Below, piece by piece: positions 602 through 32,768 of a stretch of DNA of 64,000 bases (position 1 is the first letter of the stretch; every line of letters starts with the position of its first letter). The stretch is from a virus. Lineage: Duplodnaviria; Caudoviricetes. The stretch spans positions 1 to 64,000 of IMG/VR virus record IMGVR_UViG_3300025838_000022, one strand, 5' to 3'. Below the pieces are notes generated by a model that was not told the origin of the DNA, searched no databases, and saw only the letters and a program-made list of their open reading frames with translations. Made by a program: the position numbers and the translations under genes.

Positions 602-967
602 ATGCCTTTTACAAAAGACAAATGGTCATATAGATATGCAAATGATGTCGAGGAAGACAGACCTCTTAATCCTAGAGAGATTGAGATTCTACAGGCACAC
701 CACGATGCTAAGATTGATTACCACGATAAAACGCTTGATCATCTAAAGGAAACGAGTGTGGGTAGAGAACACCCTATTTACAAGGCTCACCAAGCAGCTT
801 TCAGTGCACACTGCCTAGCTAAGCCAGGCAAAAGAACAGAACGTACGCTTTTATCGCAAAGGGAACAGACCGAAGAAGCTGATAGGCTGAGTAGAGAGGC
901 GGAAACATTGCAACATACTCCTGTTGCTCCATGGATCCAGGCTTTGCAAGAAGAGAACGAAGAATAA
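602..967 (+). CDS. Hypothetical protein with N-terminal WSYRYA leader (candidate internal head protein)
   Basis: 121-aa ORF, GGAG upstream, leader motif shared with neighbours. Confidence 0.7.
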   Translation: MPFTKDKWSYRYANDVEEDRPLNPREIEILQAHHDAKIDYHDKTLDHLKETSVGREHPIYKAHQAAFSAHCLAKPGKRTERTLLSQREQTEEADRLSREAETLQHTPVAPWIQALQEENEE

Positions 968-976
968 GGAGATACC

Positions 977-1933
977 ATGCCCTTTATTGAAGACATGTGG
1001 TCGAAAAAGACTGCTTCGACAGCAGATGAGATCCGTAGAGACCACGAAAATTTGAGCCAAGCTCTCGAGCAAGCAGAACGTACGGCTGAAGAAATGCGTG
1101 GTCGTTTTAGAGGCCAATACGACGCCATGCAAAATGTTAGTGATCTAGCTGGACGCGTTCAAGAGATCAATGACGCCAACAATGCTGCTCAAGCGCACCA
1201 CCTGCAGCAAGTCTCTGACGCCTTGAAGCGTACGCAATCAGGTGACGTTGTATACGACCCTATTGTTTATCCACACGCTCGTGTTGTACCACCATTGAAG
1301 CCTAAAAGTGCTTCTGTAAAGACTGCTGCGGGAACAAGCGAAGCTGTTCAACACCTGCTTAGAACAATCGGCACAGCTGTCCTCAGTCACTCTGGTTTTA
1401 CTGACCACATTACTGACACCCACTGGGGCCACACTCAGAAAGCATTTGATGTCCTTAACAAGTATCACAATGCTTACGCCATGGGTAACACCGCTGAGAA
1501 CATTATTAACTACTTCCGCAATCAGCCTAAGAACAGAATGGACGACGAGACTGCTAAACGCCACTCCAAGCTGGCGGAGCAACACCAACGCCTTGCTCGA
1601 GACATTGATGAGATCCTTGAGTCGCGGGCTATGGGTACCCCAGACCGTAAGCTCGAAGCAGAAACAGCCTACGATGGCACTGTAGCCGCACTACGCAGTG
1701 CAGGAATGCTGGGTATCAAGGTACCTACACCATTCACCAACTACTTCAACCAGAAGAAGGATCAAATGATTAACAACGTTGATCCTAGTGCCTCACGTAG
1801 ACAACAAACATGTGAACACGGTGTCCCACTGACTGCTGTCATGAACGATGCTGCATGCCCACAATGCTTTAATGCTGCTAACGATCACGATGATAGCACC
1901 CCATACGAAGTCACCGATAGCGACTTCATGTAA
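977..1933 (+). CDS. Hypothetical protein, N-terminal coiled coil, C-terminal CEHG...CPQC zinc motif
   Basis: 318-aa ORF, AAGGAG RBS, WSKKTA leader. Confidence 0.8.
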   Translation: MPFIEDMWSKKTASTADEIRRDHENLSQALEQAERTAEEMRGRFRGQYDAMQNVSDLAGRVQEINDANNAAQAHHLQQVSDALKRTQSGDVVYDPIVYPHARVVPPLKPKSASVKTAAGTSEAVQHLLRTIGTAVLSHSGFTDHITDTHWGHTQKAFDVLNKYHNAYAMGNTAENIINYFRNQPKNRMDDETAKRHSKLAEQHQRLARDIDEILESRAMGTPDRKLEAETAYDGTVAALRSAGMLGIKVPTPFTNYFNQKKDQMINNVDPSASRRQQTCEHGVPLTAVMNDAACPQCFNAANDHDDSTPYEVTDSDFM

Positions 1934-2063
1934 ACCCTTATAAACAAAGGGAAAACGACGTACAATCGAAACGCCTTGCAATATAAGGGAAAATGGAAAT
2001 TCGGAACTTTTTTCCCCGAAGGCGCGCGCGTAAACTGTGCAAATAACAATATAAGGTAATGGT

Positions 2064-3431
2064 ATGAAGATATTTAATAGTAGTAAGAAGACACGTAGAA
2101 CTTTTAATAGCGTTCTTGCAGGTGTTTTCGATGATATCCCCACAGACAAACCACAAGTACCTGACGATGCTGTTGACAAGCAAAAGAAGGTTGGCCCACT
2201 GAGAATGCGTTTCTTCAATGGGTTTGCTTCATTTGACCAAGACCCAATGAAGCGTGGCCTTGATAAGGGTGCTCAGGTTGCTGCTCACCACTACCTAAAG
2301 GGTTGTCACTATGCTTGTGCCAAAGATCACGCTGATGGTATATGCCGCAAAGATGACTCTTGTGAGCGTAATAACTGCGTTGGTGGATACAAAGACCAAG
2401 GTCTCAGCGAGCCTACTCAAGAAGCCATTGAAACGTTTGGTTTGATCAAGCCTAAATATGGTAAAGGCCGTGGCAACTGGATGTATTCCGGTGACTGCAG
2501 CAGAAGACAGTTAAGAGCTGAGGGTATTACTGATGAGTCTAACACGTCAAAACTTGCTAATTTGCCTACGTTGAGCTCGTATCTTAACCTTCAGCTTAAG
2601 CCTGCTGGGCGTGATGCAGATGAGAACAGGATTCATAACCTCACTGCCGACTACTACTTCTCTAACCCTAACACGATTGTTCGCTGGGGCAAAAAACCAG
2701 ATGGTTCAAAGGACTCAAATAAGCCAATTGCTATTGGTCAGTACTTTGATGAAAAGAACAAACCACAGATGGCTTACCCTGATGTGACCATTGGTGGTAT
2801 CCACCACCTCAGAAGATTGGCAGCTGACAACCTTTTGAACCGTGGTATCACTGACACAAAGACATGGTGGCACACAATGAAACACATTGGCCACTTTGCA
2901 CACAACGACCCCAATGATCCAGAGCAGCCCGGTGTTGCAGCTCATAAGGAAATTGAGGGTGTTTTCAGCTCAATCTTTGATCCTAAGAATACATATGTTA
3001 AAGATCCCAAAGAACAGCCAAAGTACAACAACGCAAGAACTGCAAGGTTTGTTCTCAGTAACCACCCTGGTCTTATTTTGAACAAAAATGCCCACCCTTC
3101 GGACAGTTGGATTGACGTTCAGAACCATAATGAAGCTGCTACAAGTAAAGATGAAGCAGTTAAGCGTGCTTATTACCGAGGATTCCCCTCAAGATACAGT
3201 CCAATGCTTGATGACAGAATGTCAAGTCTTGGTGCCAGAGGAAAATTTGACCCACTTCGCAACGATTGGCCTAAGCCTCACACGCAACTTTGGGCTGAAC
3301 GAGCCGTACAGGGTAGAAGAGACCAGGAAGATGCGTTGTTTGCTGGTCATGCAGACATTATTCCTGAGAATGTACCCAATCTTAGCCTTGGTGATCTTAG
3401 TGAAGAAGGTTACGAACCAGGTCTTGCATAA
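2064..3431 (+). CDS. Hypothetical protein with Cys cluster
   Basis: 455-aa ORF, FNS leader repeated twice at the N-terminus. Confidence 0.8.
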   Translation: MKIFNSSKKTRRTFNSVLAGVFDDIPTDKPQVPDDAVDKQKKVGPLRMRFFNGFASFDQDPMKRGLDKGAQVAAHHYLKGCHYACAKDHADGICRKDDSCERNNCVGGYKDQGLSEPTQEAIETFGLIKPKYGKGRGNWMYSGDCSRRQLRAEGITDESNTSKLANLPTLSSYLNLQLKPAGRDADENRIHNLTADYYFSNPNTIVRWGKKPDGSKDSNKPIAIGQYFDEKNKPQMAYPDVTIGGIHHLRRLAADNLLNRGITDTKTWWHTMKHIGHFAHNDPNDPEQPGVAAHKEIEGVFSSIFDPKNTYVKDPKEQPKYNNARTARFVLSNHPGLILNKNAHPSDSWIDVQNHNEAATSKDEAVKRAYYRGFPSRYSPMLDDRMSSLGARGKFDPLRNDWPKPHTQLWAERAVQGRRDQEDALFAGHADIIPENVPNLSLGDLSEEGYEPGLA

Positions 3432-3496
3432 AATTTTGTAAAAAGATACTTGACAAAACCCAAAAAATCCTCTTATATATAACTCAAGGAAATTTC

Positions 3497-3910: not shown

Positions 3911-4329
3911 CTGTAGAAGAACACGATCAAAATGTTACCCATCGCTATACTGTACATTACCCTGCTCACCCTGAGCGCACTTCAGACCCACACTACGTGG
4001 ACTTCAGCCACTATAGAGCAAAGACTAAAGGCACTGCTCAGTGTGCTGTCGGTGCTCATCGTAATGACTTTAGCGAATGTACTTTAGACGCTCCCTTAGA
4101 GCTTCACCACACACACATTGAGTTCTCATTGCAGAACGGTGTTGACCTTAAGTGGCTCGAGGTTGATTATCCCGGCGTATCTGACCCTGACACCGTTGGT
4201 GCATGGGTAGAGAGCGCAGAAAACTTGGAATGGCTTTGCCTATTCCACCACAGAGGTCATGGTGGCGTTCACACAACTGCTGCTGCTGATTACGAAGCAG
4301 AAAAATACGTACGAGGATTAATACAATGA
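3907..4329 (+). CDS. Small HNH-like (beta-beta-alpha-metal) protein
   Basis: C...C..LELHH...NLEWLCLFHH...H pattern. Confidence 0.5.
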   Translation: MTVEEHDQNVTHRYTVHYPAHPERTSDPHYVDFSHYRAKTKGTAQCAVGAHRNDFSECTLDAPLELHHTHIEFSLQNGVDLKWLEVDYPGVSDPDTVGAWVESAENLEWLCLFHHRGHGGVHTTAAADYEAEKYVRGLIQ

Positions 4330-4661
4330 GAACGTTTAATTCAAAAGAAGCAAATACTGGTGTCATTCTTCATGATCTATATAAAGCAATTTGGCCAGAA
4401 GGTCCAAAAACTATTGGAAGCGATGTAGCTAGAGCAGCAGACATCGCAACAAACCCAGACAAACGTCAGCACGCAAAAGATAGTCTTGAAAGCTTAAAAA
4501 CACTCCCAGGCTTAGCTGGTTTATACGCTAAAGAAAAAATTCAACATGCTAAGAACAGACTTAAAGGTTTGACACCAGAAAATCTTGATCCTGAAACCGG
4601 CATGCCGGTGCTGATTGCGAAGCAGAAAAATATGTTAGAGGACTTATCAAATGAACTTTAG
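4326..4661 (+). CDS. Hypothetical protein with MRTFNSKEA leader
   Basis: 111-aa ORF, translationally coupled (ATGA). Confidence 0.7.
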   Translation: MRTFNSKEANTGVILHDLYKAIWPEGPKTIGSDVARAADIATNPDKRQHAKDSLESLKTLPGLAGLYAKEKIQHAKNRLKGLTPENLDPETGMPVLIAKQKNMLEDLSNEL

Positions 4662-4878
4662 TGAACGTTATAGAAACGAACGGTTAGCAAATCCGCTGAT
4701 TGATCTCACAGCTAAAGAGATCGTAGCCTTGCTTACCCCAGTTGCAATTATGACGCAAAAAATTGTTTCTGACAAGATGGATCAACGTAAAAAAGAGCGT
4801 GAGCTCAGCAAGCTTGATAATTACGTCCACAAAGATCTTGATCCTCTAATCCATGGAGAATCTAATGGAATGGAGTAG
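4651..4878 (+). CDS. Hypothetical protein
   Basis: 75-aa ORF, GAGG RBS, tiles with neighbours. Confidence 0.65.
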   Translation: MNFSERYRNERLANPLIDLTAKEIVALLTPVAIMTQKIVSDKMDQRKKERELSKLDNYVHKDLDPLIHGESNGME

Positions 4879-5179
4879 AAGATACGCAATGGCAAAAGGG
4901 GATGACATTCCCACCCTCCTTGGCAAAATAAAAAACAATGCTTCTACGTATTTTCCAAACGCTAACGCAGCACCACATCAATGGGTTGCTAGATATTTTA
5001 TGACTGCAAAAGAACATGGTGCTGACAGCCATGAAGAACTTAGAAAAGCTTGTTATAAGAATTCTGATGAAGCTCGCCACATGGCACAGAATCAGCACAA
5101 ATCGTATTATGCGCACACAAAGATGTGGAGACAGCTCGGTGATCTACATTCAGACGCTCAAAGAGAAGCACAACAATGA
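4865..5179 (+). CDS. Hypothetical protein with MEWSRRYA leader
   Basis: Start moved to ATG 4865, which follows GGAG; tiles with neighbours. Confidence 0.65.
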   Translation: MEWSRRYAMAKGDDIPTLLGKIKNNASTYFPNANAAPHQWVARYFMTAKEHGADSHEELRKACYKNSDEARHMAQNQHKSYYAHTKMWRQLGDLHSDAQREAQQ

Positions 5180-5904
5180 CAGACCGCATTATTGGTAAAT
5201 TAGGTAAGCTTGATCCTAAGCGCCCCGCTGGTTTACACCAGTTAGCTTTTTATCAAGGCAGCCCTCTGCCAGTAGCTCCAGATACTGTTGCAGTGCCAAA
5301 TGTAGCTAGCTGGGGAATGTTAGGGAATGACAAATATGGGGATTGCACTTTTGCTGGTATTGTTCACGCCAGAATGGCTCACGCTGCTGTTTTGGGACTC
5401 TCCGAGGCTTTCCCCGCCGACACCGATGTGGAGAACGCGTACCTTTCTTATACTGGAGGAAAAGATCAAGGAGCAGTAGAGGCTGATCTTCTTAAGTATT
5501 GGCAGAGCAACGAATTGTTTGGTAGCAAGCTTGCTGCCTTTGCTCCTACTGACCATGCTGACCTTGATGAGCTTCGTAGCGTTATTGCTACGTTTGGTCT
5601 TGCTTACATTGGTGTTCAATTGCCTGTTACATTCCAACAGCAATTTCTTCAAAACCAACCTTGGGATCTAACTGGTACCCCTGCCGATAATCAAATTGAA
5701 GGTGGCCACTGTATTGTTCTTGTTGGGTATGACAAGGACCACGTGCAATGTATAACCTGGGGTAAAGTGCAGCAGATTACGTGGAGATGGTTGCAAAGCT
5801 ATATGGAAGAGAGCTGGGCTCTTATCACTCCAGAAATTGTTGAAAAAGGTGCTTATGGTGACATGCGCATCGATGACTTGACCGCTGACTTGGGGAAACT
5901 ATAA
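5176..5904 (+). CDS. Papain-like cysteine peptidase (C1-like fold)
   Basis: GND-x2-GDC (catalytic Cys), GGHCIVLVGYD (catalytic His), ITWG motif. Confidence 0.75.
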   Translation: MTDRIIGKLGKLDPKRPAGLHQLAFYQGSPLPVAPDTVAVPNVASWGMLGNDKYGDCTFAGIVHARMAHAAVLGLSEAFPADTDVENAYLSYTGGKDQGAVEADLLKYWQSNELFGSKLAAFAPTDHADLDELRSVIATFGLAYIGVQLPVTFQQQFLQNQPWDLTGTPADNQIEGGHCIVLVGYDKDHVQCITWGKVQQITWRWLQSYMEESWALITPEIVEKGAYGDMRIDDLTADLGKL

Positions 5905-6047: not shown

Positions 6048-6082
6048 GAGTTAAAACGGTCTTTAAGACGCAGTAGTAACTG

Positions 6083-6982
6083 ATGAGATACGCAGACACC
6101 AGTGCAGGCACTTACGAGAACGATGACTCGTTAAAAGCCATTGAGAACAATGAAGAAGGCTTTGGAATCCCAGGGCAATCTGCAGTTGGCACTGTTGGCA
6201 GCTTTAGATTCGCAGATATTGGCAATGAGGATGAAAACTCCACAGAGCTATCAGCACCAAAGCGCGTAACAAAGATCGATGTAACTGGCCAACCACCAGT
6301 TGTAGGAAATGAAGGGTTGTCAAGCGTCTCACCCGGATCGCTATCAACAATTATTGGAGCAAACATGAGCATGAATGCAAGAATTGCGTACGTCATGGAG
6401 AATGGTGAACCATTCTGCAATCACTGTGAAACTAATTACTTCCCAGGTACTCGTCTTGCTTGCACCCACTGCGGTTGCGGTAAGCCACAATACGATCACG
6501 GTCTTGGCGACAAGAATTTTAGCCACGTTGAAGGTCCAACGATTGGTGATATCGATGGTAAGCGTGACATCATCAAAGAAGAAGCTACAACCGCCAGCGC
6601 CTCTGATGAATACATAAGACTTTTTGCTTCTAATGGTGGTAGCGCAAGTGACCTTTACGTCCAAGGCAATATGGATGCAATGCAAAGAAAGCCTATGGAT
6701 GAAGATCTTGCTTTGTTGAGCAAAGACTACTACCAAGGATACCAGGACAGAAAATTCTACAACAAGACGCCACAACAAAGTGCTGGACAAAGCTTGTTTG
6801 ACATTAAACCAAACAGCAACGCCATCCCACGCTCTGACGGTAGCTCTAACCCTAGTTCAATGACACCTGGTGATTACGATCGTGGCCCTCTCGAGCTTAC
6901 AGATGGATTTAACCACGCTACTGCTAGCAAGAGAGCAACTTCACTTCCAGTTGATGTTATCCAAAAGTTTTTTGAGGTGTAA
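6083..6982 (+). CDS. Hypothetical protein with CNHC...CTHC zinc ribbon and several [KR]xA motifs
   Basis: 299-aa ORF starting MRYAD. Confidence 0.8.
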   Translation: MRYADTSAGTYENDDSLKAIENNEEGFGIPGQSAVGTVGSFRFADIGNEDENSTELSAPKRVTKIDVTGQPPVVGNEGLSSVSPGSLSTIIGANMSMNARIAYVMENGEPFCNHCETNYFPGTRLACTHCGCGKPQYDHGLGDKNFSHVEGPTIGDIDGKRDIIKEEATTASASDEYIRLFASNGGSASDLYVQGNMDAMQRKPMDEDLALLSKDYYQGYQDRKFYNKTPQQSAGQSLFDIKPNSNAIPRSDGSSNPSSMTPGDYDRGPLELTDGFNHATASKRATSLPVDVIQKFFEV

Positions 6983-7671: not shown

Positions 7672-8385
7672 ATGATGAATTACGACAACATTGAAATCGA
7701 AGCCAAGACTGCCGCTGCTGACACACGTTGGTTCAATGGCACATCAGAGAGCATCCTGACAAGACTCGACAGACTTCAGGATATCTTGGACAGAACGCGT
7801 ATGGCAGCTAGCAACCCCAATGCTGACATTAGAGACATTGAGCGTTATGCAAACATTCTAACTGAGCTTGGCGCTGAGAAGGAATCGCTTGAGAAGCTGG
7901 CTTCAGAGTATGTTGACTTTGACACAGATGATTACCTTAACAGCTTGCCAGGTGGTACTGTTGCTAAGGAATACCGTGTTAGCAGTGCTGGCACGACTGA
8001 CTTGGGCGAAGATGATGGTAGCTTGTTGTACCGTACAGCTTCTTCTGTTGAATCTGAGTACCATGACGCTGACTGGATCAATTTTGTCACTGCTGGTGCT
8101 GAGATCTGGGTTGAAGATCAAAACCCACGTTTGCTCAACAACCAACTGGACACCCGTGAAGCTGCTGTCTACTACGTTGAGCAAAAGACTCTCCCTCTCC
8201 TTGACACTGTAAAGCGTGCATCAATTATTGATAACTTTGTTGACAATGTTGAAATTTGCCGCAGAACAAAGAACGCAAGCGCAGAATTCCGCACTGTTAA
8301 GAGCGCAAAGGCTAACAAACTTGCTGCAACATTTGTACAAGATGCCATTGACGACTCCTTTGGGAGTGGCCTAAACTGGCTCTAA
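7672..8385 (+). CDS. Hypothetical, probably head-associated protein
   Basis: 237-aa ORF with C-ending codon bias like the structural genes; many [KR]xA motifs. Confidence 0.75.
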   Translation: MMNYDNIEIEAKTAAADTRWFNGTSESILTRLDRLQDILDRTRMAASNPNADIRDIERYANILTELGAEKESLEKLASEYVDFDTDDYLNSLPGGTVAKEYRVSSAGTTDLGEDDGSLLYRTASSVESEYHDADWINFVTAGAEIWVEDQNPRLLNNQLDTREAAVYYVEQKTLPLLDTVKRASIIDNFVDNVEICRRTKNASAEFRTVKSAKANKLAATFVQDAIDDSFGSGLNWL

Positions 8386-8386: not shown

Positions 8387-8911
8387 ATGGAAGAGTGGAA
8401 CGGTTTTAGAGTCGTCGGTGCAGTAGAAGACGACACTACCAGCAACAATACTATTGATGAAAATAGTAATGAAAGCGATCTTGTATCGTCTTTAAAAACA
8501 ATGCTTGCTGAAGCATATGTTCTTTACCACACTATTCACGGTTTCCACTGGAATGTAACTGGCAGAGACTTCTACGAATATCACAAGTTCTTTGACGAGA
8601 TCGTAGACGATATCTACGAAAACATTGATCCTATTGCAGAGAACATTAGGAAGCTTGATGCAAAAGCTCCTTTCGTCATGAGCCAATTGGCTGGACTGAG
8701 TAGGATTAAAGAAGTAGGCTTTGTTGATGATGATTCACAAAAGCTTGCTAATCAATTCCTTGATATGAACAACGAATATATCGATCATATTAAGAAAGTT
8801 TTTGACCTTGCTAACAAAGAGAATGAGCAAGGCATTGCTAATTTTGTAGCTGAGCGTATCGACCAACACCAGAAGTGGAGTTGGTTCTTGAAGGCATCTA
8901 CTGAGGCATAA
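8387..8911 (+). CDS. dps: Dps / ferritin-like DNA protection protein with N-terminal extension
   Basis: HGFHWNVTG-x2-F-x3-H...D-x2-AE ferroxidase signature; C-terminal HQKWSWFL. Confidence 0.9.
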   Translation: MEEWNGFRVVGAVEDDTTSNNTIDENSNESDLVSSLKTMLAEAYVLYHTIHGFHWNVTGRDFYEYHKFFDEIVDDIYENIDPIAENIRKLDAKAPFVMSQLAGLSRIKEVGFVDDDSQKLANQFLDMNNEYIDHIKKVFDLANKENEQGIANFVAERIDQHQKWSWFLKASTEA

Positions 8912-16745: not shown

Positions 16746-16747
16746 AA

Positions 16748-17383: not shown

Positions 17384-17394
17384 TAGGGTAAATA

Positions 17395-20034
17395 ATGTAC
17401 AAATTTTCTTTTTTTAAAAAAACTGCTGCTCAAAGATATGTTGATTTAAGAACTCGTGAGCTCATTCAAGACGCAGATACAAATGCTGATAAGTATGACG
17501 AGCAACGTAAAAAACACAACGCAAAAGAAGAAGAATTAATTCAACCTTTTGCAGTGCACATGGGTGACCCAATGAGCCATTTGAACACAGAAGCTGGGCA
17601 CCGACCAAGCAAGTGGGCTGTTATTCACCCCGACACATTCACAGCTCAGGGTCACAGCCTTGGTCAAGCACAAGAGATGGTTCGTGCTATTCGTCTTCAT
17701 GTAATGGACCCACGTAATGGTTATGAAGAAGTTTCTAACACGAGCAAAGATGGCTCTAAAACGCCAGGTATCTCTCCAAGCCAATACGGAACTAACAAAG
17801 AAATTTCTAAGATTGCTCCAAATGGCATGGTTGGTTACCGTTTAAAGGACGACGAGCGTGCCGGGAATAAATTTAATGGTCCGCACATTAAATCGTTTAA
17901 TAGTGATACGGGGATTACAGATGATGACCACCTAGGTCCTCTTCGTAGATTCCACCAGATCATTGATCACGCAAACATGCGCAACGATTTGCGAAAGCGT
18001 GTGAATAACATGCCAAAACTAAACGCACCTGACTTTGACCCAACACACCCTTTGAACCTTATTGCAAACTATGGTGGTGACGTTGCCATTCAAAAGATTT
18101 TTACTGACGATGTTGCCCACCCACCAATGAAGCCAGGAGAAAATCTTTGCGCGGCATGCCACCTCCCTGCTGATAAACACGTTGATAAGCAGTCTGCTAT
18201 TGATCACTTTACTAAAACCGGTGAGCACCTTGAAGGTCATCACGAGTTCAGATCATCCCTTGACTCAGTGGAAGATAGAGCACAAAGTTCATCTTTGCGC
18301 GCTGCATTACTCCCAATCGTAGATGAAGATGGTAACTTAAAATTTAAGACTCAAGACCTGGGCGGAAGAGTTCCTGTTTTCCAAATTGGTTCTAACCCAA
18401 TTAGGCTTGCTCGTTACAAGATTGGCCCTATAAAAGGTGAGAAATACGAAGAAAAAACTGAACCAACAGAGGTTACCAAGAGAAGAGTTTGCCCTGATTG
18501 TTACAAGGGTAAAATAAACGCATTACAAAGAGAAAACAATATTCCATGCAATGATTGCGCAAAAGGTAAAATTAATTACAAGGCTTTCAAGGCAGAAAAC
18601 GGTAACATTGTTGTAAAACCACACACAATTGGTACGGGTGGTTCTCTTTTGTATCTTGATGTTAATGATGCTGACCCTTGCCCATCTTGTAAAGGTACTA
18701 AGCAAAAAACTCACACTGATTCAACCGGTGCAAGAGCTATTGGACCATGTACAGCTTGTTATGACGATACAACCGGTGAAACTACGGGTAAAAACCTTAA
18801 TCAAGTTGTTGGCCATAACTTTAAAAATGCTGGTATGGTTTGCAGCAACCACGGTGCTGTTCTTGACCCAACAATCCGTATTACGCCAGATAATCGTTGT
18901 CCAAAATGCTTGGATGATCCAGGTTTTATCACTACCAAAAAAACTGTTGGTAGATCATCAAGAGAACCATTTTTTCATATTAAGGTAAAAGAATTTGATG
19001 GCAACCCAATGACACTTTCCAGGTATATGGTTACTGGATTCAAAGATATTGAAATTATAAAAGGGAAACTTTATTCCACCATAAAGATTGAACCAAATGG
19101 TCCTGACGGTTACAAACCAGCTGACCCCACTTGCCCACGTTGTTCTGAATGGGCTAAGAAAACTGGTAAAGACCAGAACGACTATCGCACGGTAGATAAC
19201 AGAACATGCCCTTGCACGTATGGTTGGTATGACCAAAAGGATCACATTATTGCGCCAACAGGTTCTAAATGGATTCACCCTGATCATATCACTGTTCCAG
19301 CCTCTATGTACCAGATGGCAATGCACAAAGCTTATAAAGACGATCCAAGCTCTAACCCACACAGTTTAACTCCTGTTGGTGCAATTAATTCTACGCCACC
19401 TAAGAGCATAAGCAAACTTCCTGAGTGGGCACGTTCAATAATGGGTGAAAAGTGGGGATGGCCCAATGGTGAACTTATCGCTGACAAAAATGTTCTTGGG
19501 TTTGTTAGAAATGGCGTAAGCGTTTCCCAAAAAGACCTTGAATCCTTAAACAAACAAGCAGCTGTTATTAGAAAGAGCCCTAATTATTCATACAATGGCG
19601 CCAGTAGAGAGCTGAAACTTGTCAAAGACTTTCTTGACACTAAAGGGTTCAAAGCTCTCCCAATCAACACGCCATTGTCAACTAAGAAGAGTGAAAATCT
19701 TACTGACAACTCAAGAGTTGATCTTAATAATTTTCACCCAAAGATTCAAAGCAGAATTCAACGTGTTGAAAAAGTGCTTGATAAAACTGGTTTGCAAGGT
19801 GAAGCCCGTGATAAGGTTAACGAATCTTTGAACAAGCTTTACTCAGAATCTTCTGGCATCCAAGAAGACAGAGAAAGAACCAATAGCGACGATAGTAGCC
19901 ACTGGGAGCCTTTTGAATCTGCTCGCGATGAGTTGCTAAAGACAATTGGTAAGCACGTCGATAACGACGAAGAAATCAGAAAAGAAATCGACAGATTCCC
20001 CAGCCGACAACTGCCTAGAATGCAAGAGGTTTAG
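17395..20034 (+). CDS. Large protein with DnaJ-like CxxCxG zinc-finger repeats
   Basis: 879-aa ORF; CPDCYKG, CNDCAKG, CPSCKGT, CTAC, CPKC, CPRC; FSFFKKTA leader. Confidence 0.8.
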   Translation: MYKFSFFKKTAAQRYVDLRTRELIQDADTNADKYDEQRKKHNAKEEELIQPFAVHMGDPMSHLNTEAGHRPSKWAVIHPDTFTAQGHSLGQAQEMVRAIRLHVMDPRNGYEEVSNTSKDGSKTPGISPSQYGTNKEISKIAPNGMVGYRLKDDERAGNKFNGPHIKSFNSDTGITDDDHLGPLRRFHQIIDHANMRNDLRKRVNNMPKLNAPDFDPTHPLNLIANYGGDVAIQKIFTDDVAHPPMKPGENLCAACHLPADKHVDKQSAIDHFTKTGEHLEGHHEFRSSLDSVEDRAQSSSLRAALLPIVDEDGNLKFKTQDLGGRVPVFQIGSNPIRLARYKIGPIKGEKYEEKTEPTEVTKRRVCPDCYKGKINALQRENNIPCNDCAKGKINYKAFKAENGNIVVKPHTIGTGGSLLYLDVNDADPCPSCKGTKQKTHTDSTGARAIGPCTACYDDTTGETTGKNLNQVVGHNFKNAGMVCSNHGAVLDPTIRITPDNRCPKCLDDPGFITTKKTVGRSSREPFFHIKVKEFDGNPMTLSRYMVTGFKDIEIIKGKLYSTIKIEPNGPDGYKPADPTCPRCSEWAKKTGKDQNDYRTVDNRTCPCTYGWYDQKDHIIAPTGSKWIHPDHITVPASMYQMAMHKAYKDDPSSNPHSLTPVGAINSTPPKSISKLPEWARSIMGEKWGWPNGELIADKNVLGFVRNGVSVSQKDLESLNKQAAVIRKSPNYSYNGASRELKLVKDFLDTKGFKALPINTPLSTKKSENLTDNSRVDLNNFHPKIQSRIQRVEKVLDKTGLQGEARDKVNESLNKLYSESSGIQEDRERTNSDDSSHWEPFESARDELLKTIGKHVDNDEEIRKEIDRFPSRQLPRMQEV

Positions 20035-20042
20035 GAAAAAAT

Positions 20043-22856: not shown

Positions 22857-23420
22857 ATGGAACCACGTTTGAACGTAAACGTAGCTGATCTGTTCACTAA
22901 GACAGCTGCTGAAATGGGCCAAGGCCCGGATGTTAACTTCCAAGACCCTAGCCAACAGTGGCTTGGCGACTTTGTTAACAATAAGAATGACTACCAGCGC
23001 AACCAACAGGCTTACGACGAGTACAAGTCTGGTGAAGCTGCACAGATTGACCGCGACAATGCAATCGGTATGCAGAACAATGGCATGTCAAACCCTGCTC
23101 AGGACCGTGCTTTGATGGTTATGGAGCCAGAAGTTGCTGGCACGCCAGACTTGGCATTGGCACCTGTTAAGGCTTCAAAGTTTGCCTCACAGTCGCAAGG
23201 CTTTAGACGCGACCAGGCTTACGAAGGCTTTACCATGGGTATTGTTGCCAACATCAACACCGGTACAATCGTCAACTCCCGTGTTGTTGCTGAGACACCT
23301 AGCACCAAGATCGCCGGTACGGTTATTGCCGTTGGTGACCGTGAATTCGCCGTTGTGTGGGATGACAAGACTGCCTCTGTTGAGCGCAAGGGCGACTACG
23401 AATTGGTGATTGCTCAATAA
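22857..23420 (+). CDS. Hypothetical, probably head-associated protein with small C-terminal beta domain
   Basis: AGGAG RBS before ATG 22857; strong-expression codon bias. Confidence 0.75.
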   Translation: MEPRLNVNVADLFTKTAAEMGQGPDVNFQDPSQQWLGDFVNNKNDYQRNQQAYDEYKSGEAAQIDRDNAIGMQNNGMSNPAQDRALMVMEPEVAGTPDLALAPVKASKFASQSQGFRRDQAYEGFTMGIVANINTGTIVNSRVVAETPSTKIAGTVIAVGDREFAVVWDDKTASVERKGDYELVIAQ

Positions 23421-25011: not shown

Positions 25012-27354
25012 ATGGCTACAAACGACTGGAGTGCTTCTGCGGAGTTTAGCCGCATGAGAACAGCCGGTATTACTCTTCCTAAAAACCCTATTGCTGGACG
25101 TGTTGCTGCACGTGACATGCTTAATAGAGCTAAGACCAGTGGATCAATGCTTAATGACATTGGCCCTATGGCTATGGCTATGGGCGGGCCACCTGAGGGT
25201 AGACAACGTCTAAACGGACTCGGCAAAGACTTTATGGCTGAGAATGGCATGGCACGCACTGCCAATCGTAAAACTGGTGCTGCTACTGGTTCAGATGCTC
25301 AATGGGCTTGGCCTAAGCTCCACGACCCATTTGAATACTGGCGTGAGCGCACCTGGTGGTTCAACATGGAGGACCCAGATGAGCAAACACGTAAAATTCG
25401 TGACTGGGCTCGTCTTCTTTATACTACTCACCACCTTGTGCCTTCTCTTATTGACATCTACACTCGTTTCCCTCTCCTTGACGTAGAGCTAGTCCACCCA
25501 GACAAGCGCATCTCGGATTTCTATAACGAGTTGTTCTTTGATGGTCTTAACTACAACGAATTCCTGTTTGACCTTGGCCGTGAACACTGGACCGTTGGTG
25601 AAGTGTTCGCCATGGGTTCTTGGCACGATGGTATTGGTGCATGGGAAGAAGACGAGATCATCAACCCTAACGACGTTATTGTCGCTAAGAACCGTGCTCT
25701 AAGAACATACCAGTTCCACGTAAAGGTCCCTGAAGAGATCAAGCGTCTTATAGAACGGCGTGATCCTCCACAGGAATACGCAATGCTTATGCAGATGTAC
25801 CCAGACGTTGTTGCCTGGGCACGCCAAGACAAAGAGATCCCCGTCTCCGATGTCATCATGAAGCAGATTAAGTTTAAGACCAACCCTTGGAGCGAACATG
25901 GAACTCCTATTCTTCTTCGTGCTTTCCGCATGCTTATGCTTGAAGAATCTCTCAATGCCGCTCAGGACGCTATTGCTGACCGTCTATATTCTCCCCTTAT
26001 TCTGGCTACTTTGGGTCTGCCTGACGTAGACCAGGATGGCCCATGGGTTCCTGACGCTATGGAGCTGCAGTCATTGCGTGACGACTTGTCTATGGCTATT
26101 AACTCAGACTTCCGTCTGATGACATACCACCACGGTTTGCAGATCCAAAACGCATTTGGTCGTGAATCAATGCCACGTCTTGACCAAGACTTCATGCGTG
26201 TACAGACAAACGTTATGGGTGTATTCGGTATTGGTGCTGACCTTATCCAGGGTGGTGCCAATGGTACGTATGCTTCCGGTGCTCTTAACCGTGAGCTCAT
26301 TACACAGATGCTTAGCACTTATCAGCACAAGATCGAGAAGTTTATCCGTTCTCGCATGGAACCAGTAGCAGAAAGACAGGGTCACTATGAGATGCGTAAC
26401 GTGGGTGGCAAAATGGTTCCTGTTATGGAAACTGTTCTCATGGTTGATGAAGAGACTGGTGCTGAATATGTTGAAGAACGACCCAAGCTGGCCATTCCAG
26501 AAGTAAGGTTCCGTTCTATGAACCTGAGAGACGAGACGGTTGAACGTGGGTTCCTCCAACAGCTCAGTGCCTCAGGTTTCCCAATTTCTCTCAGCACGCT
26601 TGCTGTGAACATCCCAATTGACTTTGACGATGAGATCGAAAGCCGTAAAGAAGAGAAAATTAAGACAGTTGTTGCTGAACAGCAATTCAAGAAAGAACTG
26701 TTCAACCGTTTGTTTACTCTACAACTGCCTATCCCGCCAGAATATGTACAGGAATACCAGGCCTACCTAGCAATGATGGAAAATCCTGCCATCGCTGCAC
26801 AACTTGCACCAGGAGCTATGGCGGGTCTCGTTACTCCTCCAAGTGCTCCAAACATGACTGGAAACACTGCTGGCAATAGCGATGCCGCTGCTGGTGCACA
26901 GGTTTACCCAAGCGTTAACGAAATGGCTGCACAGCAACAACGTCAACGCCCTGAGATTTCTTACGAACAACGCAAGGATCAACCTAAGCCTTCTAAGAAG
27001 GGTCCTAAGAATGGCCCTAAGAAGAAGACAGCTTCTGTTTCTGGTTGGGATGAAGACGATTTCGATGACTTTAGCGGTCGCGTTGAATACGGTGATCGAA
27101 TGAAGTTTGCCGTACCTTTTGAACAAAAGAAGCGTAAGCGCATGAAGCTTGCTTCTGGTATGAAGATCATCGTCGATGATTCATACGAGAAATTCAATGA
27201 AGATGATTTTAAAAAGCATCTAGCATCAATCATTGAAGCAAGCGATGAGCCAATGATTCAAGAACCTACATCGCTTGATGAGCACAGCAGTGGTGAGGGC
27301 GGCATGGATCAGCCTGCAAGAAAACAAATTGACCCTACAAAAGAAGATTTATAA
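25012..27354 (+). CDS. Portal protein with long C-terminal extension
   Basis: 780 aa; GTPILLRAF...PLILATLG portal-like segments; upstream of protease, scaffold and capsid. Confidence 0.8.
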   Translation: MATNDWSASAEFSRMRTAGITLPKNPIAGRVAARDMLNRAKTSGSMLNDIGPMAMAMGGPPEGRQRLNGLGKDFMAENGMARTANRKTGAATGSDAQWAWPKLHDPFEYWRERTWWFNMEDPDEQTRKIRDWARLLYTTHHLVPSLIDIYTRFPLLDVELVHPDKRISDFYNELFFDGLNYNEFLFDLGREHWTVGEVFAMGSWHDGIGAWEEDEIINPNDVIVAKNRALRTYQFHVKVPEEIKRLIERRDPPQEYAMLMQMYPDVVAWARQDKEIPVSDVIMKQIKFKTNPWSEHGTPILLRAFRMLMLEESLNAAQDAIADRLYSPLILATLGLPDVDQDGPWVPDAMELQSLRDDLSMAINSDFRLMTYHHGLQIQNAFGRESMPRLDQDFMRVQTNVMGVFGIGADLIQGGANGTYASGALNRELITQMLSTYQHKIEKFIRSRMEPVAERQGHYEMRNVGGKMVPVMETVLMVDEETGAEYVEERPKLAIPEVRFRSMNLRDETVERGFLQQLSASGFPISLSTLAVNIPIDFDDEIESRKEEKIKTVVAEQQFKKELFNRLFTLQLPIPPEYVQEYQAYLAMMENPAIAAQLAPGAMAGLVTPPSAPNMTGNTAGNSDAAAGAQVYPSVNEMAAQQQRQRPEISYEQRKDQPKPSKKGPKNGPKKKTASVSGWDEDDFDDFSGRVEYGDRMKFAVPFEQKKRKRMKLASGMKIIVDDSYEKFNEDDFKKHLASIIEASDEPMIQEPTSLDEHSSGEGGMDQPARKQIDPTKEDL

Positions 27355-28428: not shown

Positions 28429-29088
28429 ATGATTAAATTTGGTGCACCATCAATAGCTCTACAGGGTAGAGAGACGCTGGCCGGTATTGGTCAGCCTATT
28501 GAGCTACACAATGTAACATTTGATGACTTTAATTTTAAACCAGAACCTGGTTACGTTTACGCTGTTTCTAGAGCCATTTCCTCCAGAGTAAACGCTAACT
28601 ACGATGGCTGGCCTGTTGACCAAATCAAGAAAAGCTACAAAACTTTTGTTGGTCGTCCAATCTATGTTGAGCACAACAACTCTGATCCAGACCGTGCTCG
28701 TGGTGTGATCTTGGATGCTGTATACCGTGAGAGCAAGCTTGCCTCTGGTGCTACAGACGCCAGTGTTTACTGCCTTATGGAAGTAGACGCACAGAATTTC
28801 CCAAAGCTAGCCAACTCAATTATGGAAGGTAGCTTGAACGCTGTCAGTATGGGTGCTGACGTAGAGGGTACGCAGTGCTCAGCTTGTGGTAAGTACGCTA
28901 GCAAGCCAGCTGAATACTGTACTCACATCCCTCGCCTTAAAGGACGTACAGTTACCGTATACAAGGCTGGTAAGAGAATTGAAAGCCTTGTCTACGAGAG
29001 CTGCATTAAGCCAAACTTCTTCGAGCTGAGTTTTGTTTTTGAACCAGCAGACGAATCAGCTTGGCTGCTACAAAAGAAGCGTTACTAA
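28429..29088 (+). CDS. Prohead (capsid maturation) protease with zinc-ribbon insertion
   Basis: VEHNN (His), VSMGA (Ser), ELSFVFEPAD; CSAC...CTH insertion; lies between portal and capsid. Confidence 0.85.
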   Translation: MIKFGAPSIALQGRETLAGIGQPIELHNVTFDDFNFKPEPGYVYAVSRAISSRVNANYDGWPVDQIKKSYKTFVGRPIYVEHNNSDPDRARGVILDAVYRESKLASGATDASVYCLMEVDAQNFPKLANSIMEGSLNAVSMGADVEGTQCSACGKYASKPAEYCTHIPRLKGRTVTVYKAGKRIESLVYESCIKPNFFELSFVFEPADESAWLLQKKRY

Positions 29089-29090
29089 TA

Positions 29091-29789
29091 ATGCCTATTC
29101 TTAAAGTTTCTGAAGACATTAAGAAGTATGCGTTGGAGGTAATCAAGGTACCAATTTCTGTGCTTGGTGACTGCCCTCAGTGTCAGAGCAACGGTTACAG
29201 AGACGGTATCTGCCCAGACTGTGCTTTTATTGACCCTCGTGTTCAAGAAGCAATTGCTGCTTGGCAACAAGCTATGGGTATTGAACAGGTTATGAAGCAG
29301 CAACAACAAAGCCTTGCAGAACAAAATGCAATGTCAAAAGCTGCTTACAGAAGCTTGGCATTTAGCGATATGTTCCCATCTTCGGCCACAACAAAGGTTA
29401 AATGCCCAGACTGTGGTCAAATGACTTTTGAAAATGATTCCTTAAAAAAGGGTGAAATTTCAGGGACATGTAAAAATCCTGAATGTATGAAAGAAATTGC
29501 TGGTGCAACAGGATTTAAAAGACCCAAGTTCCTGGGTATAGATCCTAGGTGGAAAAAAAAGGTTGATAGAGGTTACAACTTCTTGAGCCCTGGGACACTA
29601 CAGATTGAACAAGCAAAAAACAAATTAAAAAAGAAAAGTGCTAAGGAACAAAACGATCCTGGTGCAATTCTAAATGATGCAGCAGCAGCTTCGATGGATG
29701 CTACGACTCGTATGAGAAGTATGCAACTACAAGACGCAGCTCTTCAAACACAACCCCAAGACGCAGAAAATAGCGAGGAGCAACAATGA
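29091..29789 (+). CDS. Double zinc-ribbon protein of the head module
   Basis: CPQC...CPDC and CPDC...CKNPEC; start at ATG 29091. Confidence 0.75.
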   Translation: MPILKVSEDIKKYALEVIKVPISVLGDCPQCQSNGYRDGICPDCAFIDPRVQEAIAAWQQAMGIEQVMKQQQQSLAEQNAMSKAAYRSLAFSDMFPSSATTKVKCPDCGQMTFENDSLKKGEISGTCKNPECMKEIAGATGFKRPKFLGIDPRWKKKVDRGYNFLSPGTLQIEQAKNKLKKKSAKEQNDPGAILNDAAAASMDATTRMRSMQLQDAALQTQPQDAENSEEQQ

Positions 29790-31180
29790 GCCGTTTCGAC
29801 AATGAACTGGTCAGACAAGCGAACAACGCTTATCAGAACACCGTGGGCGAGGGTAAGACCACCACACCAAGACAACAAGAGTATGACCAGGTTGGTTTGG
29901 CTGGTACTGATCCAGCACCTGGTGTCTTTCAGGCTCCTGCTGCTCCAGTAGATGAAGTCGGCTCATGGGGCGCTTTGCAGCCCACTAGCCCTAACGTTGT
30001 TGACGTTAGAAACTTGGACAACCTCGAGGGTGAGATCATTGGTGGTCCTGGCTCGAGCGCAGTTTGGGCTGAGAAGCAGCCTATGTATGCCAGCACACAA
30101 GTCATTGATGAAAGCTTGTACCAGGTGTACAAGGCTAGCCGTGACATTCGTAATGCCATTGATGAGCAAGTTGACTTTGATTTCTCTAACTTGATCACTG
30201 CTGCTAACGAGGCTTCGACTGTTATGCGCTTCGCTAGCTCAGATGACACCGTTAACCAGGTTATTGGTACGGTTGCAGGCATTGTACTCGACATCGAGAA
30301 TGACCTCGCTACCTACGGTGACTACCGTCAAGCTTCTGCTGATCTTAAGTCACTCGAGGGCTTGCTTGAAGACATCAAGGTTGCCGCCACTGGCGAAGAC
30401 GATGACAAGGACGGCAAGGAAGACGACGGAGACTCTGACGACAGCACAAAGACTTCTGCCAAGAAGAAGTGCGTTTGCAAGGGTAAGGGTTGCAAGAACT
30501 GCAAGAAGTCTGCCAAAGACAAGGACTCTGACGACGAGGATGAGGACGACGAAGACGACGATGACATGCCTGCCTTCTTGAAGAAAAAGAAGAAGAAGGC
30601 TTCCAACGGTAACCAAGAGTCGCTGCAAGTTGTTGACGTTCGTGACCTTGACGACCAGGCTGGTGTCTGGGACCGTCAAAAGGCTATGACTCCTAACCAC
30701 ACCACAAATGTGTTGGTTCCTCAGGAAGTCAATGGTGAGGATGCTGCCTACGTGCCATTCTACAACGATGGTGGAACGACGGGCATCGAGCCTGGCAATG
30801 GCCCTCACAAGCAGCAACTTGACTTCCAAGATGGTACCAACCCTGCCATTGCTCCTTACGCAGGTACAGTTGCTGCTGTACAAGCTAGCCGCGAAAAGAT
30901 CTTCGCTGCTATTGAGGTTGTTGACCGCCTTGAAAAGATGGGTATGGTCAATCACGACGATCGTGCTAAGCACATCGCAAAGTTTGAGCAGATGTCCGAA
31001 TCTAAGCTAGCAGGTTTTGTAGCTTCGATGGAGCTGTTTGAAGAGTCTGGGGCTCGTCAACCCCGGAGCCAGAAAGTGGCAAAGGGTAACAACTCATTGC
31101 CAGAAATGGGTCGGTTGACAACGGCCTCAACAGTTACTCGTCAAGACGTTCAGTCTGACGATTGGCTGATGACACTATAA
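29786..31180 (+). CDS. Putative scaffolding / head core protein
   Basis: 464 aa, acidic and basic low-complexity tracts, internal repeat VVDVRxLD, upstream of capsid genes. Confidence 0.65.
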   Translation: MSRFDNELVRQANNAYQNTVGEGKTTTPRQQEYDQVGLAGTDPAPGVFQAPAAPVDEVGSWGALQPTSPNVVDVRNLDNLEGEIIGGPGSSAVWAEKQPMYASTQVIDESLYQVYKASRDIRNAIDEQVDFDFSNLITAANEASTVMRFASSDDTVNQVIGTVAGIVLDIENDLATYGDYRQASADLKSLEGLLEDIKVAATGEDDDKDGKEDDGDSDDSTKTSAKKKCVCKGKGCKNCKKSAKDKDSDDEDEDDEDDDDMPAFLKKKKKKASNGNQESLQVVDVRDLDDQAGVWDRQKAMTPNHTTNVLVPQEVNGEDAAYVPFYNDGGTTGIEPGNGPHKQQLDFQDGTNPAIAPYAGTVAAVQASREKIFAAIEVVDRLEKMGMVNHDDRAKHIAKFEQMSESKLAGFVASMELFEESGARQPRSQKVAKGNNSLPEMGRLTTASTVTRQDVQSDDWLMTL

Positions 31181-31208
31181 CCAAATCCCCTACTAAGGAG
31201 AAAGAAAA

Positions 31209-31739
31209 ATGCTGCAACTCAATAGCGTAGCTAACGTTGGGGTTCACCGTACGTGCACCCCACTGTACGAAAAGTACGAGGCTACACCCTACAACACGTT
31301 CCTGGACCCTACGGACACCACGAACATCTACTCGGGTATGGCCATGTACCGTACTGGTCCTGACACCGTTGCCAACGCTGGCTCGGGTGCTACCGTTTCT
31401 GGTGCACGTGTCTTTGGTCTGTCGGCTCTCGACCGTAACCCCAACATTGACGACGTGACTCAGGTCGGCGTCAACGCATGGGCTGTGTGGCTCGGTGGTT
31501 CTAACGCCTTCTTCACGATCACGGCTCCTGCTTTTGACACGACTCAGCAGTACAACGTTCCTACGAATGGTACTCGTCAGTTCCTGTACACCGCTTCTGG
31601 TACCGGTCAGCTTACGTCAAACCAAAACACAAGTGCCACTTCCGGTACTCTGTGCTTCCAGCCTATCGCTGAGTTGATTGACGTGATCAGCCCAACCCAG
31701 ATCGTTATCCGCCTCGTACCATTCGGTGCTCAGGCTTAA
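31209..31739 (+). CDS. Putative capsid decoration / stabilising protein
   Basis: 176-aa beta-rich protein immediately upstream of the major capsid gene, strong codon bias. Confidence 0.65.
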   Translation: MLQLNSVANVGVHRTCTPLYEKYEATPYNTFLDPTDTTNIYSGMAMYRTGPDTVANAGSGATVSGARVFGLSALDRNPNIDDVTQVGVNAWAVWLGGSNAFFTITAPAFDTTQQYNVPTNGTRQFLYTASGTGQLTSNQNTSATSGTLCFQPIAELIDVISPTQIVIRLVPFGAQA

Positions 31740-31757
31740 TCTGAAAGGAACATGAAA

Positions 31758-32768
31758 ATGTCAATTCTCCCTAATGGCGCTGTCGCTGAGCACCTTGCTC
31801 CCCGCACAGCTAAGAAGTCAGACGACTACGTCGCTGGCATTGTAGAGGCTCAAGAGCGTCTCGCTTCGGCTACTGGTCGTAAGACTGCTACCCGCGAAGA
31901 GAAGCAACGTCGTCTCGCTGGCATCCTTGCCGACAAGGACAACTACATGGTCCGTCTGGGTCAGGGTATGATTGGTCCTATCCAGCTTAAGCTCCGTTAC
32001 CAGGGTATGACCCGTAACGTCCTGCTGGAAGACCCGCTCACCCCTGGTGTCCCTGTCATGTACGACGTTCTTGACGAGTACGGTCAGGCTTACATTCTTT
32101 CCGGTAACGAAGGTGAAGTCCGCGTGACACCCTTCGAAGGTAAGAAGGTTCCAGTCCGTTTGTTCCGTATCGCTACCTTCCCTCAGATTAAGAAGGAAGA
32201 CCTGTGGTACCTGCGTGTGAACATCGTTGAGTACGCTCAGGACATGTCGAAGCAGGCAATCATGATGCAGGAAGACGCCCGTTTGATCACGGTGCTCGAG
32301 GCTGCCATCAACAACTACGCGGTTGACCCCAACCACGTTGTGTCGCCTAACCACATCGTTAACGAGCTCTCGGGTTACATCACCCCTGACTCGTTGTACG
32401 ACCTCGTTGCCCTCATCGAAGTCCACCAGTTGGAAGCTTCGAGACTGTTGTTCAACCCAATCGACTACCGTGACCTCTACAAGTGGGACATCAACCAGAC
32501 CGGTTGGGCCTTCAAGGACCGCGTTGTCGCTGGTGAGCGCATCGTTCAGTTCGGTGGTTTCCAAGTTCAGCGTTCGATCGAAGTGCCTCAGGGTACTGTC
32601 TACATGACCCCAAGCCCCGAGTTCCTCGGTGTGTTCCCCGTCATGTACTCGCTCGACGTCGAAGAGAACCACACCCCAGAGAAGTTCCACAAGGGTTGGG
32701 TCATGGACGAGCTCGTCTCCGAGATCGTTCTCAACCCACGTGGTCTGGGCAAGATCGTTAAGGCTTAG
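31758..32768 (+). CDS. Major capsid protein (HK97 fold, Bxz1/cluster C-like)
   Basis: MIGPIQLKLRYQG...RNVLLEDPLTPGVP...FRIATFPQIKKEDL recognised; strongest codon bias; ATG 31758 is better spaced from AAGGA than 31752. Confidence 0.9.
   Translation: MSILPNGAVAEHLAPRTAKKSDDYVAGIVEAQERLASATGRKTATREEKQRRLAGILADKDNYMVRLGQGMIGPIQLKLRYQGMTRNVLLEDPLTPGVPVMYDVLDEYGQAYILSGNEGEVRVTPFEGKKVPVRLFRIATFPQIKKEDLWYLRVNIVEYAQDMSKQAIMMQEDARLITVLEAAINNYAVDPNHVVSPNHIVNELSGYITPDSLYDLVALIEVHQLEASRLLFNPIDYRDLYKWDINQTGWAFKDRVVAGERIVQFGGFQVQRSIEVPQGTVYMTPSPEFLGVFPVMYSLDVEENHTPEKFHKGWVMDELVSEIVLNPRGLGKIVKA

Follow-up and report, generated by a model that had tools for sequence, protein, structure and literature searches.

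Why should so many unrelated proteins on the head side of a phage genome begin with almost the same few residues? The question arises in a 64,000-nucleotide stretch of DNA (here called the window), positions 1 to 64,000 of the IMG/VR virus record IMGVR_UViG_3300025838_000022 (Duplodnaviria; Caudoviricetes), in which an initial annotation had noticed similar short leaders at the N-termini of proteins encoded between 602 and 32768. The record is one contig of 122,797 bp with 45% G+C, and the window is its first 64 kb; nearly all genes between 0.6 and 107.6 kb lie on the plus strand and are followed by a 15-kb minus-strand arm. Our reading, to which we give a probability of about 0.5, is that the leader is a load-and-clip tag like that of phage T4, with a motif that ends in alanine and that also serves as a joint in fused cargo proteins.

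The claim that unrelated proteins share a short N-terminal leader was borne out, and the N-termini were as the initial annotation had given them. In its sharp form, the motif is [FW]-[NS]-x-[KR]-[YTF]-A within the first ~15 residues, and the consensus of 28 seeds from six genomes is M-[NS]-[WF]-[NS]-x-[RK]-Y-A, with S/K/A/N/T next and acidic residues beyond. The better copies in the window are the following (scores in bits are from the scoring matrix described below).

602..967, plus strand: 121-residue protein with the strong leader MPFTKDKWSYRYA (WSYRYA; nucleotides 602-640), 17.9 bits
977..1933, plus strand: 318-residue protein with the strong leader MPFIEDMWSKKTA (WSKKTA; nucleotides 977-1015), 13.8 bits; AGGAG stands 5' of the ATG
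4326..4661, plus strand: 111-residue protein with the moderate leader MRTFNSKEA, 6.9 bits
4651..4878, plus strand: 75-residue protein with the leader MNFSERYRNERLA (FSERY..ERLA), 10.9 bits
4853..5179, plus strand: open reading frame (ORF) of 108 residues, with a likely start at the second ATG (4865; GGAG 8 nucleotides 5' of it) that gives the strong leader MEWSRRYA, 18.2 bits
20043..22382, plus strand: 779-residue protein with the strong leader MTDKKQFNSKYA (FNSKYA)

Enrichment over composition-matched shuffles, which had been set as a check, is present. A loosened expression, [FW][NSLDTAK]x[KR][YTFEQ]A, matches 12 of the 169 ORF N-termini and has four internal matches in 38,647 residues, an excess of ~28-fold per residue, whereas shuffling of whole proteins or of the first 24 residues only gave a mean of 0.15-0.17 N-terminal matches and a maximum of 3. 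Because this expression was read off the genome itself, a position-specific scoring matrix (PSSM) was trained on four related genomes only, with the present genome left out; at a cut-off of 10 bits, it recovered 11 of the 169 N-termini as compared with 1 of 1175 internal windows. Strict matches are also restricted by region, being found in 12 of 57 ORFs at 0-33 kb or 98.3-107.6 kb versus 0 of 112 elsewhere (p = 9e-7), and the 12 copies form two blocks, one at 0.6-23 kb and the other at 103-107.6 kb, around the terminase. The leader had been described as absent from tail and baseplate N-termini, and even its loose form occurs in none of the 27 tail and baseplate ORFs. The window does not contain six of the best copies, which are located at 103308-107247, around the terminase (large subunit at 104846, likewise outside the window), where the leaders read MNWNLRYA, MNWNTRYA, MNFNERYA, MSWLERYA and MSDWNLRYA. 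As to the size of the set, which had been put at about 20, five to six strong copies in the window stand, whereas about eight of the listed items are weak variants and not equal members; this weak class is modestly enriched (8 of 45 versus 7 of 112, p = 0.036), and several of its leaders are still kept in orthologues.

The leader is encoded by varying codons (Arg by AGA/CGT/CGC, Tyr by TAC/TAT and Ala by GCT/GCA/GCC) in genome-typical proportions, and the DNA 5' of the leaders is unrelated, except for one local tandem duplication at 4326/4651. Thus, selection acts on the peptide, and a DNA-level signal as the cause of the shared starts was ruled out. The comparison with five long related contigs (G001-G005, the present genome being G000; G004 has 37% G+C) revealed the tag in four of the five, on other proteins, with leaders such as MFNSRYA, MSWSERYA, MNWKRRYA, MNWSIRYA, MNWSLRYA, MSFNSKFA and FNAKYA. 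Homologues of the 779-residue protein retain the leader as FNAKYA or FNSKTA at a mere 23-29% identity, and G002 has MNKFEERYRQA, similar to the leader of the 4651 gene, on a different protein. The tagged genes belong to the accessory part of the genome: a homologue of such a gene is found in 1.7 of the five relatives on average, and one of a head or tail core gene in 4.3; the 602 protein gave no family match and has a homologue in none of the five.

On a broader scale, the capsid protein of the window is 64% identical to its counterparts in cluster C mycobacteriophages such as Myrna, and ~80 IMG/VR contigs with capsid genes 66-99% identical to the window's apparently stem from lake metagenomes, judged by sample series. 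WhiB-like N-termini suggest an actinobacterial host. An exact back-translated MNWNxRYA pattern gave 27 matches on 20 contigs in IMG/VR, all of which, as far as could be judged by names and sample series, belong to this lineage; the proteins concerned have 42-194 residues, are mostly unrelated and are frequently Cys-rich. In 596 Gb of prokaryote genomes, the MNWNxRYA DNA pattern (a single codon pattern) gave 44 scattered single matches, none of them in Actinobacteria, against a chance estimate of ~35. Since the matches to this one codon pattern are at chance level, nothing in the scan points to mimicry of a host leader, and this origin was not favoured.

The full motif also occurs within proteins, at the module borders of fused forms. 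Two genes that are separate and tagged here (104046 and 104597) are joined in G005_97309 as ..EKNSS-FDERYA-NEK.., and G001_777 (777-1778), which itself begins MFNSRYA, combines an RNase T-like exonuclease with the body of the tagged gene 103308 across the joint ..QKMA-STGE..; in the present genome, this exonuclease is untagged and stands with the next small tagged gene at 102550-103589, outside the window. G004_57386 has ..SSRTA-NKYIEKRGD before a DUF2188 module. More internal copies were found as RS-FNSRYA in G002, SS-WNKRYA in G003 (G003_1076), SS-WSSRYA in L128 (L128_5906) and WNTRYS in L130 (L130_176), and L126_3314 carries WSERYA..WKARYA in tandem, 15 residues apart. With internal matches that have a Met just upstream discarded as start-codon miscalls, strict [FW][NS]xRYA internal copies number ~4 versus ~0.4 expected from composition (an estimate). 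Modules are fused or split between relatives at a fixed junction motif, as in head polyprotein and polyvalent cargo systems.

Besides gene position, evidence for a link to the head comes from a tagged protein of 183 residues (phrog_2859). Its body aligns at 39% identity (E = 2e-21) with residues 1 to ~130 of a protein of Roseobacter phage CRP-821 (L142:3992-6916) that has 974 residues in all. In this polyprotein, the N-terminal domain is followed by a prohead protease of the Peptidase_S78 family and then by an HK97 capsid domain; its gene is annotated 'major capsid protein' and adjoins the portal gene. In Vibrio phages, the same domain is positioned at the N-terminal end of a protein just upstream of a head-morphogenesis gene. 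The homology to CRP-821 implies that a module loaded elsewhere by covalent fusion to a head polyprotein is tagged here. The likeness to this type of polyprotein is that one tagged domain corresponds to its N-terminal module and that relatives fuse and split modules at the motif; the difference is that most modules are here free-standing tagged genes, not joined to a head protein.

Candidate cut sites of a related kind are found in the head proteins and in one conserved protein next to them.

22857..23420, plus strand: conserved protein of ~187 residues (p200) with a weak, variable leader ..ADLFTKTA and a C-terminal WDD[KR]TA-SVERK (nucleotides 23367-23375)
25012..27354, plus strand: portal (phrog_2833, E = 3e-164, residues 8-677), with a tail from KKKTA-S (nucleotides 27025-27033), then KFA and KLA
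29061..29789, plus strand: Zn-ribbon head protein with KKYA at residues 22-24
29786..31180, plus strand: putative scaffold with candidate sites RQA (residues 10-12, nucleotides 29813-29821) and RFA-S (residues 148-150, nucleotides 30227-30235)
31752..32768, plus strand: major capsid protein with the candidate maturation site PRTA-KKSDDYV (residues 18-20, nucleotides 31803-31811)

The capsid R-x-A is present in 38 of 39 relatives (x = T, V, I, A or Y) and in Myrna (GRFA-K); the peptide before it is variable in both length and sequence, whereas the (K)SDDYV after it is conserved. Among the [KR]-x-A sites that had been proposed for the capsid N-arm, PRTA is thus the conserved one, whereas ERLA and RKTA are not conserved. 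Among solved structures, the only capsid relative by sequence is 6wkk, whose alignment starts at residue 49 and says nothing about cleavage, and a literature search for published N-termini of cluster C capsid proteins found none. At scaffold site 148, [KR]xA is retained in 42 of 44 ungapped rows by way of RFA, KSA, RTA, KFA, RVA and RKA, with S/A and acidic residues on its C-terminal side, and the retention of the pattern is above that of residue identity. Similarly, the C-terminal site of p200 keeps its pattern in 25 of 26 relatives through residue turnover; its N-terminal KTA is present in about half of the relatives. The portal tail sites are kept in 74-83% of relatives, some with A changed to S, and the pattern of the Zn-ribbon protein in 79%. 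Judging from these alignments, only sites whose pattern outlives their residues would count as support. In some relatives, the Zn-ribbon protein is fused to the scaffold (G004, 540 residues; L035, 626 residues). The portal of L067 (1239-5987; also those of L068, L069 and L077) has 1582 residues, with an insert whose first residues are C-L-V-A-G-T-D and in which an LAGLIDADG-like stretch occurs; this insert is probably an intein, and the large portal was dismissed as a cargo fusion, its size being explained by the intein-like insert.

Two genes of the window encode candidate proteases.

28429..29088, plus strand: prohead protease with gp21/assemblin fold, 219 residues (phrog_18299, 'head maturation protease', E = 7e-26)
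5176..5904, plus strand: stand-alone papain-like (clan CA, C1-type) cysteine peptidase without leader, 242 residues, with invariant N51, C57 and H178

A model of the 28429 protein (pLDDT 78) superimposes on the protease of varicella-zoster virus (Z 8.6, root-mean-square deviation (rmsd) 2.7, 114 residues aligned), on that of human cytomegalovirus (Z 6.8) and on T4 gp21 (5jbl; Z 8.5, rmsd 3.2, 127 aligned), and its top Foldseek matches were all herpes proteases (probability 0.89-1.0); a sequence search of solved structures with this protein found nothing. H82, S140 and H166 are invariant and form a plausible Ser-His-His triad, as judged from their spacing. In our reading, this protein is the most likely cutter. 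It also has a conserved Cys-x2-Cys..Cys-x-His insert at residues 150-166 (C150, C153, C164 and H166), a possible zinc ribbon, and a conserved K-[FY]-G-A-P at its N-terminus. The 5176 peptidase, conserved in nine relatives, matches as a model xylellain (E = 3e-5), Lpg2622, Der p 1, cathepsins and papain; in Pfam, no family passed the threshold, and a weak sub-threshold match to C39_2 was observed (E = 0.037).

We propose that M-[NS]-[WF]-[NS]-x-[RK]-[YTF]-A, together with looser F..K-T-A forms, would constitute a portable address that also marks a cut site. During late infection, it may dock its protein to the core of the assembling prohead, either the scaffold or the protease, and the phage protease would then cleave after the Ala. 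Cleavage of the same kind would remove the capsid N-peptide up to and including R-x-A, process the scaffold and part fused cargo modules at the internal motifs, and the mature proteins would remain in the head and enter the host along with the DNA. The comparison with the T4 capsid-targeting sequence (CTS) made by the initial annotation holds for the short tag on unrelated, fast-changing proteins in late head-side blocks, for the motif end that also occurs near the capsid N-terminus and for the gp21-fold protease; it does not hold for [KR]-x-A alone, which is not a code.

Several observations weigh against this proposal. The generic [KR]-x-A, which had been taken as a recurrent code of the N-termini and head proteins, is only 1.5-fold enriched at N-termini, internal [KR][YTF]A is only ~2-fold over shuffles (z 2.9 in cargo proteins and 2.2 in head proteins), and [KR]-x-A sites in nine head proteins are, as a class, no better retained than the control tripeptides [KR]xG, [KR]x[LIV] and Ax[KR], so that the generic code was rejected and a specificity shared between leaders and head proteins rests on a few sites. 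A few leaders terminate in RYI or RYN instead of A, which weakens a strict rule of Ala at P1 and makes a cut after Tyr possible. The papain-like peptidase sits inside the tagged-gene cluster and is an equally placed candidate cutter. No strict copy was found in G004, which has FFSKTA, YFKKSA and Y-x-Y-A type starts, and no leaders were found at the N-termini of Myrna, although cluster C mycobacteriophages are the closest cultured relatives. Some tagged bodies, such as the RNase T-like exonuclease and a cupin, have no known head role. Finally, the phage is known from metagenomes only, and the proposal is built on sequences and models.

Alternatively, the leader might be a propeptide that the papain-like peptidase takes off, in the cytoplasm or in the head, in which case no capsid loading would be required. 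The fold and the invariant Cys57/His178 dyad fit this role, as does the gene order: the slot just 5' of the peptidase gene holds 1-4 small tagged genes in eight of the nine relatives with this gene, and the genes with MRYA, RTA and Dps-extension starts lie downstream of it, but the six best leaders are ~100 kb off, by the terminase. Papain-family enzymes select chiefly on a bulky P2 residue. The Y/F at P2 of R-Y-A suits this preference, whereas Thr, which is frequent at the same position (KTA), fits papain S2 pockets poorly. In G004, the peptidase is retained and there are N-termini of the Y-x-Y-A type that lack K/R, as this explanation would have it, yet the capsid R-x-A, the scaffold site and the head-polyprotein homologue are left unexplained, and neither an ATP-binding cassette (ABC) transporter nor a GG motif was found, in contrast to C39 leader peptidases. 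We regard removal by this enzyme as unlikely.

Distinctly improbable, in our view, is a leader that is never cleaved and has no link to the capsid, acting instead as a docking or regulatory tag that binds a host or phage factor, as a degron or as a timer of late activity. Strong conservation of the peptide on unrelated proteins would be expected of such a tag, some of the tagged bodies are enzymes without known head role, and P1 is not invariably Ala. Nevertheless, the motif is limited to late blocks beside head and terminase genes, it recurs between fused domains, where an N-terminal tag would be useless, a matching conserved site stands in the capsid protein, and CRP-821 has the head polyprotein; moreover, prokaryote genomes hold the MNWNxRYA DNA pattern at chance level only, with none in Actinobacteria. 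The shared start might also be left over from recombination that exchanged cassettes at a 5' gene end common to them, and serve no purpose today. The internal-protein loci of T4 offer a precedent for such swapping, and the tagged genes lie in hyperplastic slots, where phages that are otherwise nearly identical have exchanged them. Against this, codons differ in a genome-like manner and upstream DNA is unrelated, which leaves little DNA homology for recombination, the motif survives at 23-29% body identity, and internal copies retain it in full; we consider this explanation very improbable.

The load-and-clip proposal can be compared with several known systems. In T4, a CTS of ~10 residues directs internal proteins as well as green fluorescent protein (GFP) to the inside of the head; gp21 takes small peptides off the N-termini of the internal proteins (PMC9958956). 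As with IPI-III and Alt, the internal proteins of T4, unrelated, fast-changing and non-essential-looking proteins begin with a short peptide (8-13 residues here, ~10 in T4), a gp21-fold protease is encoded, and trimming of the capsid protein probably takes place at a related site. In contrast, the leaders have no similarity to MKTYQEFIAE and end in [KR]-[YTF]-Ala instead of the hydrophobic-x-Glu of T4, so that the T4 motif itself is absent; the head is of cluster C type (HK97-like capsid protein of 338 residues, separate scaffold); and far more genes are tagged, including those of proteins of 680-880 residues. A single prohead protease, gp175 of phiKZ or gp245 of SPN3US, is reported to mature many head-internal and ejection proteins at S/A/G-x-E, some of them at multiple sites (PMC5694885, PMC10052503). 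The maturation of many proteins by one protease at a short motif is what we propose here as well, but P1 is Glu in those phages, whose propeptides are much longer, and the N-termini that share the leader here contain no S/A/G-x-Glu.

Herpes assemblins cleave after Ala, at YLQA-T and VQA-S (PMC4498786), the general forms of these sites being YLQA-T/S and VxA-S. The modelled fold of the 28429 protein with its plausible Ser-His-His set (S140, H82 and H166) resembles theirs, and the proposed cut after Ala, frequently before Ser and with an aromatic residue a few positions upstream, would match the R and M sites. The sequence identity is 10-14%, however, and the substrate of assemblins is the protease-scaffold itself and not tagged cargo, while the specificity assumed for the phage enzyme is a prediction. 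In staphylococcal phage 80alpha, leaders of the capsid and scaffold proteins are reportedly cut by the host protease Prp and mimic the extension of ribosomal protein L27. The short head-protein leader with an aromatic-Ala junction is similar, and a cysteine protease could make the cut here too; the differences are that Prp is a Firmicutes host enzyme acting on an L27-like leader, whereas the scan with one codon pattern found no host counterpart above chance here, and that the candidate cysteine peptidase is phage-encoded and papain-like. Double-glycine leaders with C39 peptidases differ as well, as the present leaders end in R-Y-A and the 5176 peptidase is stand-alone with a fold that matches the C1 type.

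It is possible, though somewhat short of an even chance, that this freshwater actinophage lineage evolved its own 8-residue capsid-loading tag, cut in the manner of assemblins after Ala at N-termini and between modules, which delivers a fast-exchanged arsenal with the DNA. This arsenal might comprise Zn-ribbon peptides, nucleases, a cupin and orphan proteins of 700-900 residues. To our knowledge, capsid-targeting leaders have a firm basis in T4 and have been deduced for phages similar to T4 or phiKZ, in every case with a motif that ends in Glu. If our reading is true, the occurrence of another, unrelated motif in an actinophage with a head of HK97 type would make tag, load and clip a general and convergent way of protein delivery, and it would link the specificity of a phage protease to the Ala-specific herpesvirus assemblins. 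In addition, dozens of orphan proteins would become candidate injected effectors against abundant lake Actinobacteria, and a ready-made 8-residue delivery tag would be at hand for the engineering of actinophages; it might load foreign proteins into relatives of the cluster C mycobacteriophages.

The remaining genes of the window with weak or deviating leaders, and one further head gene, are the following.

2064..3431, plus strand: 455-residue protein with a weak, degenerate double leader MKIFNSSKKT..FNSVLA that fails the strict expression
6083..6982, plus strand: 299-residue protein that starts MRYA, a minimal leader of the weak class
7672..8385, plus strand: 237-residue protein with N-terminal ..IEIEAKTA, weak class
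8387..8911, plus strand: Dps/ferritin-like protein (PF00210, E = 5e-19) with the N-terminal extension MEEWNGFRVVG
13840..14667, plus strand: 275-residue protein with ..MAFDAKFA-GK at residues 14-22, weak class
14700..16745, plus strand: Cys-rich 681-residue protein with MSKTFNSSFSKQSA, weak
17395..20034, plus strand: 879-residue protein with MYKFSFFKKTA, weak class
31209: cement protein (PF23968)

Homologues of the 2064 protein (23-25% identity) begin MFNSREA or MFNSKEA, and orthologues of the 6083 protein begin MMRYA or ..ILMRYA, with a stop codon directly 5' of the 6083 start. For the 7672 protein, [KR]-T-A is found in six of seven orthologue N-termini with differing flanks (EAKTA, QIRTA, LLRTA and IIRTA). 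The Dps start had been listed with the [KR]-x-A leaders and does not belong there: its extension, WNGF[RK][VI][VL][GSA], is conserved in five relatives and missing in G004, and is a different pattern without [KR]-x-A. The site of the 13840 protein reads FDAKFA, FDAKLA, FEAKTA, YNAKTA or FQAKTA in five genomes, with GK after each. This protein, with glycine-zipper stretches and weak tape-measure-like PHROG matches, is conserved and ranges from 128 to 826 residues across relatives by the addition of modules.

The orphan proteins of 681, 879 and 779 residues adjoin one another at 14700-22382 and have 27, 17 and 9 Cys, respectively; all three vary strongly between phages whose capsid proteins are nearly the same. 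Searches of Pfam and PHROGs gave no family match for the big cargo proteins, tblastn with the 779-, 237- and 275-residue proteins against 50,697 phage records found nothing, and among 5.8 billion proteins the 779-residue protein has near relatives only. A neighbour of the 14700 gene in G001 begins MAKTFNSKYS. The 879-residue protein is hypervariable, being barely recognisable in phages with capsid proteins 98-99% identical, and its homologues (24-31% identity) begin MFNFSFNKNKVKVA and MNKFVFNKN..KTSA. Near the start of the window, a hyperplastic slot (4326-5179), of which the 4326 gene is by synteny the first, lies between a conserved gene for a His-rich protein of 140 residues (3907-4329) and the papain-like peptidase; the same slot is present in G001, G003, L125, L126, L129 and L141, where it holds 1-4 different small leader-bearing genes each.

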